From positions 39,618,001 through 39,682,000 of the forward strand of contig OX597819.1 in assembly GCA_951406725.2 (NCBI GenBank): a stretch of DNA of 64,000 nt. The letters run 5' to 3'. The notes beneath the pieces were generated by a model. The model searched no databases. It worked only from the letters and a program-made list of their open reading frames with translations, and had not been told where the DNA came from. This DNA comes from Octopus vulgaris. Taxonomy: Eukaryota. The translations under genes and the position numbers were made by a program. Below, piece by piece: positions 2,801 to 55,868 of this stretch (the stretch's first letter is position 1; each line of letters starts with the position of its first letter).

Positions 2801-3056
2801 AAAATATGTGTGTGTGTGTGTGTGTAGGCTCGAAACGTTAAAGACTTTTTCACTTCCCGAGCGTTATACTATAACACATCGTTTTGTTGTCAACACCACC
2901 TGTCTTCGTCTTTTGTTTTTTTGTGATATATATATATGTACATACATACATACATACATACATACATACATACATACATACATACATACATACATACATA
3001 CATACATACATGCATACATACATGTCTTCCCTTCTCTGGATCTTTCCTTCTCCTAT

Positions 3057-3091
3057 GTTTCCGACGAAGAGCTCCGCTCGAAACGTTAAAC
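3057..3091 (+). ncRNA. Minimal type I hammerhead-like motif (family E, core CCGACGA)
   Basis: GTTT-CCGACGA-A-GAGC-tcc-GCTC-GAAA-CG-TT-AAAC: stem I GTTT/AAAC, stem II GAGC/GCTC, palindromic ACGT stem III. It lies in a ~165-bp repeat (3024-3190) that recurs at 48810-49022. Confidence 0.55.
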
Positions 3092-3245
3092 CCTCCTTCT
3101 TTCCTTCTTTCCTGAGCGTCCAATAATAATATATTTGTTCCACATCCTCGCATTTTTGTGTTTTTTTGTGTTTTCTTGTTTGGACTAACTATATATATAT
3201 ATATATATATATATATATATATATATATATATATATATATATATA

Positions 3246-3363
3246 TTGGCCTGCTCGCTTAGCCAGCGGGGTGGCGTCATTCGAAGGCTAAAACAATGCG
3301 AACGCATTGTGACCAGCGATGTGTAAAACATCTGATGGTCTGGTCGGTCACGTGATCACGTGA
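3246..3363 (+). mobile_element. 3' part of SINE family D
   Basis: TTGGCCTGCTCGCTTAGCC... matches the copy at 56128-56250 and overlaps the end of the tRNA-headed minus-strand copy at 63109-63318. Confidence 0.7.
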
Positions 3364-3552
3364 TATATATATATATATTGCTTGTGATTTTCATATTTCT
3401 TGCCGACAAAGAGACGATCTCCAACTTAGTAATAAACCTTGTTTTATTTTATTTATCTTTTTTTGTTTCAAATTTAGACGTCAGCTTGATCAACGATTTT
3501 CAACCGGAGTTCATACGACCCTTGGGACTCCATAAAAGGTTTTATGTTGAAA

Positions 3553-4180
3553 CTAGCCTAAGGTGACCCGCTCTACGCGCGGGTAAGTGTGTGGTTGTTA
3601 CTTTCTGTTGCTTCCTTTCTGTTTTTTATCACCACATTTTCCCTCTTTGTTTCTCTCTCCTTTCTCTCTCACTTTTCCACTCTCTTACACTTCCTTTCTC
3701 TCGGACTCTCCATCGCTTTCTCTTACTCTCTATCTTTATCTATCTATCTCCCATTTATAAACAACAAAAGATCTTGAGTAAGTTGAGAAAGAAAGTAGTT
3801 TGAAAGATCAATCATAAATATCAGGCAGTGACAACGGAAAGGTTTGCTTCAAGGCAGACAGCAAAACACTAACATTTAAAAGGGACTGACGAACTTGCGA
3901 GCTGAATAAAAATAAAAAAATATTGGAAACCAAAGTTTGAAGAGATAGAATCTGAGGATAGTAGAGTCACCATGGCTGGCATTTCTTAACGACGGACAGC
4001 AACGTAGTGGCAGTTTAACGGCTGGCGTAAAATTTTGAACTTGATGTAAAAGAAAATTCCTAAACACCAAGTTTTGAAGTGGTTCTTTCTCACGATAGTA
4101 GACTCACCATGGCAAGCATTCAAAACTTCTTCATGATGGACGGCAACACATTGAAGATTTAAGTCGTATTTAGTAGACAA
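3553..4180 (-). mobile_element. Helitron-like element (3' end clear, 5' end uncertain)
   Basis: Hairpin ACCCGC-tctacgc-GCGGGT (3566-3584) lies ~10 nt from a terminal CTAG|T (3553-3556) on the minus strand, and there is an internal CT-rich tract. The right boundary is a guess. Confidence 0.5.
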
Positions 4181-4373
4181 TAGGAAAATAGAATAAGGAA
4201 ATGAAGGCTCGGGATGTTGTTAAACCATTTATATCTTGACGTCTTCTACATATGTTTCGACCGATGCACCCCAAAAGTGTTTTAGGAGTGCATCCGTCGA
4301 AACATATGTACAGGACTTCAAGATATAAATAGTTTAACATCCCGAGAGTTTATCTCCTTGTTCTATTTTCCTA
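4181..4373. repeat. ~190-bp imperfect fold-back palindrome containing the 3' half of an HHR in each arm
   Basis: TAGGAAAATAGAA...GATGCACCCC is the reverse complement of GGAGTGCATC...TTCTATTTTCCTA. GAAA-CATATG-TA is at 4299-4310. It abuts (TA)n. Confidence 0.85.
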
Positions 4374-53222: not shown

Positions 53223-53431
53223 TAAAGGGGTGCTGGAAAGTTTCTGGCTTTGGGTAAAAGAAAATTCAGGAGGATCAGTTAAGTATGATTCTATTACCCT
53301 CTCAGAATCACACACTTATGTCAGCGATCTTTCAGTTTTTTAAGCTCTGTAAAAGAACTCAGAAGGCCGAGCCTCCAATCAGGCCTTGCGTGATACTCTT
53401 AAAGCCAGGAAATTTTCAACTCCCCCTTGTA
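53223..53431. mobile_element. Mariner-type MITE (same family as 10382-10573)
   Basis: TIRs GGGGTGCTGGAAAGTTTCTGGCTTT / AAAGCCAGGAAATTTTCAACTCCCC and shared internal sequence. Confidence 0.8.
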
Positions 53432-53834
53432 TATGTGCGTGCGTGTGTGTATGGGGGGTGCGCGTGTGTGCATGCATGCGTGTGTGTGTGTGTGCGTGTG
53501 TGAGTGTGCGCGCGTGCGTATAAGCACAGTTCTCCGTTTAGTCTCAAAAACTTGAACCTTATATACTGCAACCACAATAATTATATGCATTTGGAAAAAT
53601 CAAAAGAGAAATAGAAAAAAACCAGTTATGCAATGTAAATTTTTAAAAAGTTTATTACATTTAAATGATATCTATTTTTTTTTCTTTTGTGCTTCTTTAA
53701 TTTTTCTTAAAGATTACAATAATTCTCTTAATGTCTTTTGTGAATTTTCACTTATTATATATGGTATGATAGATCGTTAGCCACTACACACATTTTTGTC
53801 TCTCCTTTTTTCTCTCCTTGTTTTTTCTGTGTCC

Positions 53835-53870
53835 CTTTCTGTAGAAGAGTGTAGGCTCGAAACGTAAAAG
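53835..53870 (+). ncRNA. Minimal HHR-like motif (family F, core CTGTAGA)
   Basis: CTTT-CTGTAGA-A-GAGT-gtag-GCTC-GAAA-CG-TA-AAAG. Confidence 0.5.
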
Positions 53871-55044
53871 ACTTTTTCTATTGCTGGGCGTTATACTAAT
53901 ACATCTGTTTGTTTTGTACACCACCTGTCTTCGTCTTTTGTTTTTTTTTCGTAAACTCTCCCTATATATATATATATATATATATATATGTATGTATGTA
54001 TGTATGTATGTATGTATGTATGTATGTATGTTTTTTGTGTTTTTCTCCCTCACACCGCATGTCGGCTGGTGTGGGTTTGCTCACGTCCTTGTAACATAGT
54101 GGTTCGACAAAAGACATCGATAGCATAAGTACCAGACTTAAAACAGTACTGGGACCGATTTGTTCGACGAAACCCTTCAAGTTTGTGCTTCAGCATGGCT
54201 GTAATCCAATGATTGAAACAACTAAACGGTAAAGAATGATTTACAAGGAACAACCAATGTTGCCGGCGGATAGTTAGTAATTAACAATAAGGTAAGGATA
54301 AGAGGTATTAGCAAAGCTTGTGTGCATAGATGTGTGTGAAAAACTTATGTACATGGTCTTAGAGTGAGAAAGGAGATAGAAATTGTTGAAATGAATACAT
54401 AAAGTTTTCGAGGAGACCAATGCTTGATAGAAAGCTTGCATTGTTGCAGCTGTAACAGATTTCAACCTCGTTTATACCACTTTAATCCATTCGGATAAAC
54501 GCATACAGGAAAAAGATAACTTCCGTTTGGCTGGGCGTATATAAACAAAGCGAAAGGTCACAACTTATACGATATGGATTATTAAGCTTGTGTTTTGTAA
54601 TGGTTGTGGTAATAAGTTTCGTAACTTACACTAATTTGATAATTTGGAACTGATATTAATGACAACATAAACTGGGTTCCAACCCTCAGCACATTTATGC
54701 GAACTCAACTTGATCTACAAAGAACTGTCACCCTATGCTTACTGACTATAGGAGTACGCTACGTATATGTTAGAGAATATTTTAAAATATTTACTCCGAC
54801 GACCTAAGTAAACAATGCCACGAATCGGTTCTGGGCATATGCTTACCATCCCTGTTCTGCACTATTAACCACTGCAGAGGGGAATATGCATTTTTATCCT
54901 TGCCTAGACAGACACATAGTATATCTGACACTATGCATCTATACATTACACTATCATTTGACAGCTATCCATGAATTTGATCAGGGCTGGCCTGGGATTA
55001 AACAACAAGAACAGCAACAGCACTTCATATATATATATATATGT

Positions 55045-55335
55045 GTGTGTGTGTGTGCGTCACTAAAACTCAAGAACTACCCAACCGATTTCATTCAAAC
55101 TTTGCACATGCCTTTGCACAGTGTCATAGGCCAAAATAATTTTCAATTTCTTGCCTAATGCGAGTCTGGAGCAATCACTTCTCTCTTACACTATTTCAGT
55201 ATTACGTGTCAAAAGTGATACAATTACATCTCTATTGTAATGTGAGATAATACTTTCAATATTAATAATGAAACTATTAATACTTTCGCTATGTTAGTTC
55301 GCTATATATTAGTTTAATTTCTATCACTTTTACTA
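55045..55335 (+). mobile_element. Helitron/HINE-like 5' fragment
   Basis: (TG)n followed by AACTCAAGAACTACCCAACCGATTTCATTCAAACTTTGCAC, similar in style to 6555-6600. Confidence 0.4.
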
Positions 55336-55782
55336 TGATATATATATATATATGTATGTATATGCATGTATATGTATGTACATGCATGCATGTATATGTA
55401 TGTATACATATATATGTATATATATGTGTGTGTATACATTATGTATATATGTGCATATATATGCATATGTATATATGTATATTTATTTTATCTAGTTTCA
55501 GCTCACGAGCTGTGGCCATGCTGGGGCACCGTATGTATATATGTATATATATATATATATATATATATATATATATATATATAGATGTATGTGTATATTT
55601 TCAATGTGTACAATTAATACGGAAAAAAATAGTTACCAGGTTAGCGAAAATTCACATAAATGCCAAGGATGTTACAGACTACTCATAAAGGTTGAAATTT
55701 CAGAGTTAAGTGAAATGTTCTTGTATAACATAGATAAATTAAGAAATGGAATTAAACTCAGTTTTTATTCAAATCTTCATAC

Positions 55783-55868
55783 TTCCGACATATGTTTCGA
55801 AGAAAACATTGATATTATTCCGGTGAGAATAAAATGATGTAAAACAATGCGACCATCTCGTCAGGAAA
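55783..55868 (-). ncRNA. Type I hammerhead ribozyme (family D), canonical core, long stem II
   Basis: Minus strand: TTTC-CTGACGA-GA...(hairpin including TTATTC/GAATAA)...TC-GAA-ACATATGT-C-GGAA. Stem III is palindromic and the triplet is GUC. Confidence 0.6.

Follow-up and report, generated by a model that had tools for sequence, protein, structure and literature searches.

Minimal type I hammerhead ribozymes reside in the pseudo-long terminal repeats (pseudo-LTRs) of Penelope-like elements (PLEs). In the passages of Cervera and de la Pena (2014, PMC4209133) that deal with them, single motifs are mostly regarded as probable truncated PLEs, and the counts given are ~4,000 for the coelacanth and 9,000 for Xenopus. 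The sections of Craig et al. (2021, PMC8557442) on PLE structure describe an anatomy of tandem copies, inversions and tails, the targeting of (TA)n, and a Hydra family of octopus whose ribozyme is different. The second established kind of hammerhead repeat is the non-LTR retrozyme. Animal retrozymes were defined by Cervera and de la Pena (2020); the cited part of that work gives ~5,000 for mussel and as many as 120,000 for axolotl (PMC7229834). In the cited part of their preprint, Li, Clavereau and Pollet (2026, bioRxiv 10.64898/2026.07.22.740005) link retrozymes to PLE pseudo-LTRs, mainly in vertebrates, and report that one of nine retrozyme dimers cut in vitro. The present analysis concerns a 64,000-nucleotide stretch of the Octopus vulgaris genome (contig OX597819.1, positions 39,618,001 to 39,682,000), called the window below, in which 16 hammerhead positions had been listed by a sequence-only reading.

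For cephalopods, 235 hammerhead hits are given for the giant squid in the relevant part of PMC6962438. In an Octopus vulgaris genome, PLEs make up 6.83% in 190 families, and ribozymes are unmentioned in the cited sections of that description (PMC13282606), whose repeat library may already contain the families of the window. A search of the open-access literature found no paper on octopus retrozymes and no genome-wide account of octopus hammerheads, and the texts cited here contain no cephalopod retrozyme.

Self-alignment assigns the 16 positions to eight sequence groups, A to H (Table 1). The reading that best joins the results has a high probability: the hammerheads lie near the 3′ ends of repeats ending in (TA)n, of which groups B and D are the ends of coding PLEs, and groups C and E are protein-less units likely copied by PLEs. 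The families are fresh members of the two established kinds, PLE pseudo-LTR hammerheads and non-LTR retrozymes, and the kind itself is known.

Hammerhead Motifs and Their Controls

The motifs were located with a type I hammerhead descriptor that includes stems I–III, the core CUGANGA/GAAA with at most one core change, and helix checks. The scan of the window gave 10 matches, every one at an earlier-listed position. At a score of at least 11, there are seven motifs, compared with a mean of 0.025 (maximum 1) in 40 block dinucleotide shuffles, and none in the reversed or the complemented window. Relaxed settings, which permit two core changes and a 2-bp stem II and for which no shuffle control was run, allow all 12 positions described as complete to be parsed as type I hammerheads. 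None of the four described as partial (2826, 4299, 17150 and 28230) can be parsed, and these are truncated copies. A stricter first descriptor returned one match in the window. The hammerhead motifs in the window are real, the earlier claims of about 12 complete folds and of four partial ones hold, and their frequency is above that of the shuffled controls.

Rfam models do not recover these motifs. An Rfam scan of the window at the gathering threshold gave no hits, two local scans did not find the hammerhead, and in a whole-window scan by E-value, it was absent among the 150 of 355 matches listed, where microsatellite miRNA models dominate. Such a missing match would be expected for minimal or long-stem hammerhead variants.

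The core shows recurrent variants: U3-A8 in C, U4C in A and F copies, and A6U in B, where 32 of 43 cores read CUGUAGA. The hammerhead at 17742 carries two core changes, U4G and A6U. Stem covariation is seen between subfamilies. In C-like copies, the first pair of stem II changes from G-C to A-U and the palindrome from ACGCGT to ACATGT, and one stem I position is occupied by G-C, C-G or A-U pairs across A, B and an A variant. These compensatory changes were counted by eye in a few subfamilies, and a partner-shuffle test of 20 A-type copies was of low power. The proposal that the families share only the ribozyme core fails for A and B, which have in common the stem II arms, an extra A, ACGT and an 11-nt stretch 3′ of the ribozyme. 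Their downstream alignment is weak by itself (z 2.9, matched by 11 of 500 shuffles).

Ends of Coding Penelope-Like Elements

Groups B and D, which hold seven of the 16 positions, are, as judged from their sequence, the 5′-truncated ends of PLEs that encode protein and belong to two clade types. One B copy extends 520 nt upstream, and that stretch is itself repeated. When four B copies were followed further upstream, three led into a frame that encodes a CxxxxCxxC linker and a GIY-YIG-type domain, the fourth begins within the last codons of that frame, and in a sampled locus (L104), the frame end, 3′ untranslated region (UTR) and B ribozyme are contiguous. The part of the B parent frame that was read is its endonuclease end; all 150 scored relatives of the endonuclease domain (query aside) are 84–89% identical, and their open frames reach at most 1,047 aa. 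The B parent appears to be Neptune-type by its linker of the CX2-5CxxC class before GIY-YIG, a linker common to Nematis; compared with the Neptune- and Nematis-type PLEs in the cited part of PMC8557442, its clade is suggested by this linker and not fixed by a tree.

Upstream of D lies more than 2 kb of conserved microsatellite-like sequence. One of the two copies fetched beyond this UTR reaches a reverse transcriptase (RT) and endonuclease, and the other is truncated. In the joined loci L070 and L207, the RT is followed by CxCx5C, CxxC and CxH motifs, the UTR and the D ribozyme, and a second D locus, on C9, has the identical order, 2.0 kb apart. Relatives of D are 90–98% identical, with open frames of at most 722 aa; longer proteins were also searched with the D endonuclease, and the absence of any match there is weak evidence. 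As read from the translation, the D parent has the CxCx5C linker, CxxC and CxH and no CCHH, as in the Hydra clade. Like the Hydra-clade PLEs of PMC8557442, as far as the cited part goes, it has these motifs, a C-terminal GIY-YIG-like domain, a hammerhead and insertion into (TA)n. By contrast, its UTR of over 2 kb stands against elements that are there generally shorter than 3 kb overall, and the Hydra-1_Obim ribozyme of File S2 in that source, compared by eye, is unlike those of D and F. The TA/CA microsatellite-like character of the D 3′ UTR is also visible in the window at 40780–41500. Since this UTR resembles a microsatellite, its retrotransposition spreads seemingly plain microsatellite sequence.

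The links of the other groups are of different strength. Five of 14 fetched A copies continue at least 10 nt upstream, with no open reading frame (ORF) within 100 nt of the upstream extension, so the proposed walk from the families to a PLE RT or GIY-YIG frame reached its goal for B and D but not for A. A circle of A closed through (TA)n was considered and ruled out because some copies continue upstream. For F, there is one locus in which the final 60 codons of a Hydra-type frame run into the ribozyme. Both A and F probably represent PLE ends. In locus L179 (1200–1493), the stop codon of the Hydra-type frame lies inside stem I of the F ribozyme, and this join is possibly a deletion form or a template switch. 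The G copy has 82–88% identity to its best copies, and the 59-nt stem II of its hammerhead is held at the base by only two contiguous pairs.

The copies display 5′ truncation, partial tandems, 5′ inversions and an optional 3′ tail, as in PLEs. The tail is seen in C, E and F and is not established for A and B. No closed tandem unit lacking coding capacity was found for A, B or D.

Protein-Less Tandem Units

Groups C and E have the anatomy of retrozymes: their units are non-coding, are joined head to tail and contain a single type I hammerhead apiece, and in both groups the longest ATG frame has 38 aa. The C copies (30 loci, 28 distinct insertions) are 98–99% identical. They repeat head to tail every 363 nt, and there are two alternative end points, which lie about 62 nt from each other. 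The first 100 of 1,255 C ribozyme matches were merged into 67 loci, 18 with direct repeats 343–365 nt apart, 13 with inverted pairs, all of them divergent, and 42 with a single ribozyme. The E copies have a 584-nt period and a tail of 100–115 nt and are 96–99% identical. The predicted fold of the C circle has −108.8 kcal/mol, against −83.6 ± 5.7 kcal/mol for base shuffles. C and E are described as young retrozyme-like units with the PLE insertion signature, ends in (TA)n and 5′ inversions. Because nearly identical copies lie on many chromosomes with the same unit junction, tails and inversions, each insertion points to the reverse transcription of RNA longer than one unit, likely by a Penelope-like enzyme.

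Like non-LTR retrozymes, C and E are non-coding head-to-tail units of a few hundred bases with less than 45% GC and one type I hammerhead each. Unlike them, they occur mostly as dispersed (TA)n insertions of 1–4 units with PLE tails and inversions, and no PLE pseudo-LTR matching them was found. They also resemble Chlamys MRC1, given in the cited part of PMC8557442 as non-coding PLE derivatives with pseudo-LTRs and head-to-tail insertions; however, the Chlamys non-autonomous elements share the 3′ end of their autonomous partner, and most Chlamys families are without hammerheads there.

A possible source of the enzyme is present in the same genome. An intact young PLE family (loci L141–L146, e.g., L144 1268–4968) has a 781-aa RT-GIY-YIG frame and an overlapping upstream 479-aa frame, which sets it apart from the Neptune- and Nematis-type PLEs as cited from PMC8557442. 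It has its own U3-A8 hammerhead near the 3′ end, two 3′ ends ~40 nt apart, and (TA)n targets. This family and the D parent are age-matched candidate drivers of C and E. The 781-aa protein has 576 relatives, and no PLE family name appears among the 120 listed. Several close relatives are filed under bacterial symbionts of bivalves and are likely host DNA in those assemblies. The 479-aa frame belongs to no known family, and the 3′ UTR has repeated CCAAT-like and TGACGTC motifs and a TATA-like box.

Genome-Wide Copies and (TA)n Targeting

All groups are repeats dispersed through the genome (2.8 Gb, 227 contigs). First-look searches returned 2,419 candidates for A, 842 for B, 1,028 for C, 1,380 for D, 2,553 for E, 226 for F, 2,040 for G and 97 for H; 40 were scored per group, and these counts are not copy numbers. 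Exact words occur genome-wide 7,068 times (A, 17-mer), 7,876 times (B, 20-mer with two degenerate places) and 1,255 times (C, 20-mer), compared with 0–2 for reversed-pattern controls.

A (TA)n run adjoins the 3′ end of every insertion in the window. Elsewhere, among the best-matching loci examined (25 each for A and B, 30 for C, 20 each for D and E), (TA)3 lies no more than 25 nt past a recognisable 3′ end in 24 of 24 A, 19 of 20 B, 25 of 30 C, 18 of 18 D and 18 of 20 E copies. In the samples and the window together, (TA)4 occurs within 300 nt downstream of 31 of 35 ribozymes and upstream of 20 of 35, against 253 of 820 random positions. Different families stand end to end in one (TA)n tract at 17680–18376 (B then C), 21799–23417 (D then E) and 40196–41892 (F then D). 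As different families stack in the same tract, each insertion renews the target for the next one.

The density was estimated from 40 stretches of 10 kb at round coordinates on 30 chromosomes, hand-picked and not length-weighted. They hold 19 motifs at a score of at least 10 and 40 at a score of at least 7.5, whereas 10 shuffles gave 1.1 and 3.9, respectively. The density of one motif per 5 kb suggested earlier is valid for the window but not for the genome sample, where it is ~1 per 11–22 kb; the window is somewhat richer. Scaled to the genome, this gives ~126,000 motifs (Poisson 75,000–199,000) at the higher threshold and ~252,000 (176,000–349,000) at the lower one. Many copies are mutated, and these totals therefore count motifs, not active ribozymes. 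The genome likely holds more than 100,000 hammerhead motifs, and the sampled ones come from many more families than those of the window. The folds, the ends and the sample scan thus confirm abundant type I hammerheads of the PLE type with PLE-like placement in (TA)n. Compared with the counts in the cited part of PMC4209133, the octopus estimate is 10^5 per genome instead of thousands, with one abundant A6U family and several stems II of 50–60 nt.

Two observations were made outside the window. A further retrozyme-like hammerhead repeat with a ~359-nt period has five direct and two inverted copies (G000:C1:20002278-20004542), and an abundant, tailed hammerhead family whose stem II is very short and stem I long ends in (TA)n (L075, L128, L160, L174).

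Apparent Start-Site Anchoring and the Proposed Mechanism

The short copies of A and B begin ~105–120 nt upstream of the predicted cut site, and at that point, the longer copies read TCATT (A) or TCAGT (B). Both sequences are similar to initiator motifs described for PLE pseudo-LTRs (PMC3846280). Of 1,997 A matches, only 404 retain the two bases preceding the initiator-like A, as do 524 of the 1,773 B matches; in 711 A matches, (TA)n stands in their place. Smooth truncation at ~8% divergence would be expected to keep those two bases in some 85%, an expectation for which no control step was counted.

The PLE literature suggests the following route. The element protein would nick TA-rich DNA, reverse transcription would be primed internally just 3′ of the pseudo-LTR, and it would usually stop early, leaving ribozyme-bearing stubs. 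The PLE protein primes internally at that place on uncleaved RNA (PMC11167929), and priming at the first transcript junction would therefore copy only the part from the start site to the junction. The balance tips slightly towards many A and B stubs being full-length copies of the transcript's first pseudo-LTR that extend from the priming site to the transcription start.

The cut site itself leaves little trace in the copies. No exact C copy starts at the cut site beside (TA)n, against 1,255 matches spanning it; one variant C copy of the 30 loci (L027) begins there, and A and B copies show no 5′-end pile-up at the site. Since the copies cross the cut site intact, the template is uncut or religated RNA. 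In agreement with this, insertion by the anole PLE in vitro is independent of cleavage (PMC11167929), and weak cleavage has been published for minimal PLE hammerheads. The footprint does not discriminate between circles and uncut multimers. The chances stand even that C and E travel as circles, formed by dimeric hammerhead cleavage and ligation, with uncut multimers as the alternative.

The predicted duplex energy between two copies is −7.0 to −9.8 kcal/mol for the palindromes of C, E and G and weak (−1.7 kcal/mol) for A and B. D may cut alone through its hairpin stem III, and the majority of the genomic motifs probably cut weakly or are silent. The widest form of the proposal is doubtful: the ~10^5 hammerheads would have arisen via two PLE routes, i.e., tens of thousands of start-site-anchored A/B cassettes resembling short interspersed nuclear elements (SINEs), and C and E as abundant circles copied by PLEs, with enough cassettes cutting, in inverted or tandem pairs or with help of the PLE protein, to shape host transcripts.

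Alternative Explanations

The sequence-only reading had regarded all groups as short non-autonomous mini-elements moved by one microsatellite-targeting PLE. Most copies are short, C and E (two positions) are indeed ORF-less tandem units, the short A and B copies with clustered 5′ ends could be re-copied like SINEs, and G and H have no ORF link so far. This is contradicted for B and D by their continuation into PLE ORFs of two clade types, and there are at least four coding PLE families that differ at the 3′ end, i.e., several mobilising families instead of one; as a general explanation it is quite unlikely. The opposite view, that everything is debris of coding PLEs and that C and E are pseudo-LTRs tandemised locally by DNA recombination and immobile as units, draws on the local tandem amplification of pseudo-LTR ends proposed in the cited part of bioRxiv 10.64898/2026.07.22.740005 and on the C loci with one ribozyme. 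It is made very unlikely by the dispersal of the C and E copies described above. An enzyme of a long interspersed nuclear element (LINE; e.g., RTE, CR1 or Dong/R4) could in principle have copied C and E as retrozymes, as no sequence link of either to any PLE was found and LINE remnants lie in the window. However, the two internal 3′ ends, together with the partial tandems and the 5′ inversions, agree with the PLE tail signature in the cited parts of PMC11167929 and PMC8557442, and the intact PLE of the same genome has the identical two-end pattern, which leaves the LINE route highly improbable. Finally, that the motifs are chance matches in AT-rich repeats might be argued from the missing Rfam match and from groups A and B, whose stem I has only 4 bp and whose descriptor scores are low; the shuffle, reverse and complement controls, the compensatory changes, the sense orientation and the position near PLE 3′ ends make this barely credible.

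Several points weigh against the preferred reading of coding PLE ends, PLE-copied units and start-site-anchored stubs. The links to coding frames cover B, D and weakly F (2 of 40 scored copies of the Hydra-type frame end reach the F ribozyme), and A, G and H are outside them. C and E have no nucleotide match to the intact PLE loci and no convincing similarity to PLEs in the 3′ region. The examined A–E loci are best matches and thus biased toward long, young copies. The 5′ ends of A are spread over ~20 nt around the initiator-like base, some 10 nt on each side, and microhomology with (TA)n, together with variants of the long copies, could explain part of the uncontrolled step. Position-6 changes cleave slowly according to the cited part of PMC3088659, and B is mostly A6U. 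Cleavage, transcripts and circles are predictions from sequence. A closed tandem unit of G, suggested by coordinates, was ruled out by reading the junction.

Features of the Window

The partial tandem and inverted copies claimed earlier are borne out by self-alignment (Table 1). The window is rich in microsatellites and dispersed repeats. No PLE frame was found in it; LINE and transposase-like remnants are present, among them a LINE RT remnant (Pfam RVT_1) at 34643–35770 (−). Pieces that we take to be zinc-finger, restriction-like endonuclease and mariner-like transposase sequences lie at 26889–27221 (−), 46988–47356 (+) and 35812–36281 (−), respectively. ARAGORN found no tRNA genes in the window and thus no tRNA-like SINE head; degenerate A/B boxes were not searched.

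Table 1. Hammerhead-bearing insertions of the window, with the listed positions assigned to each group (clade types are those suggested by the linkers).
Group	Listed position	Coordinates	Strand	Copy	Hammerhead
B	2826 (partial)	2822..2925	+	truncated copy, begins within stem II	partial ribozyme
A	3057	3023..3197	+	5′-truncated copy	minimal, 3057-3091; U4C core, extra A after A9, ACGT stem III; predicted cut after 3087
H	4299	4180..4372	+	inverted pair of truncated copies	3′ ribozyme half only
F	17150	17066..17224	+	inverted tail piece and truncated copy beginning in stem II	
B	17742	17680..17871	+	putative Neptune-type PLE 3′ end	minimal, 17742-17778
C	18165	17879..18376	+	1.37 units of ORF-less 363-nt head-to-tail repeat (17879-18013 = 18242-18376)	18165-18206; U3-A8 core, ACGCGT stem III
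D	21931	21846..22203	-	Hydra-type PLE 3′ end	21931-21981; canonical core, hairpin stem III
D	22400	22284..22465	+	inverted truncated copy	22400-22450
E	22896	22709..23361	-	slightly more than 1 unit of ORF-less 584-nt head-to-tail repeat, short inverted tail piece	22896-22986; long stem II, ACGTACGT stem III
F	28230	28199..28356	-	truncated copy beginning in core, joined to tail piece	
F	40233	40196..40469	-	inverted pair; second member a truncated copy with tail, 40313-40469 (+)	full, 40237-40299 (-)
D	40533, 41714	40516..41850	+	single insertion, inverted arms and own microsatellite-like 3′ UTR	40533-40583 (-), 41714-41764 (+)
A	48886	48808..49031	+	copy from initiator-like site	minimal, 48886-48920
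B	53835	53763..53962	+	putative Neptune-type PLE 3′ end	minimal, 53835-53870 (A6U)
G	55783	55590..56012	-	older repeat, short 5′ inversion	55782-55869; long stem II

Significance

Three aspects are worth follow-up: how dense the motifs are, the PLE signature of the young retrozyme-like units, and the apparent anchoring at start sites. The hammerhead load of ~1 per 11–22 kb, invisible to Rfam, compares with at most 120,000 copies in the ~10 times larger axolotl genome. As C and E are very young and carry the PLE tail and inversion signature, and intact PLE frames are present in the same genome, the question of which enzyme moves retrozymes becomes directly testable. In two families, 5′ ends accumulate at an initiator-like site, which suggests that internal priming may lead by a simple route to SINE-like solo pseudo-LTRs. 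If the reading with two PLE routes were true, PLEs would breed non-coding parasites, and the octopus genome, with ~10^5 hammerheads, would carry them at a higher density than the published counts compared here.

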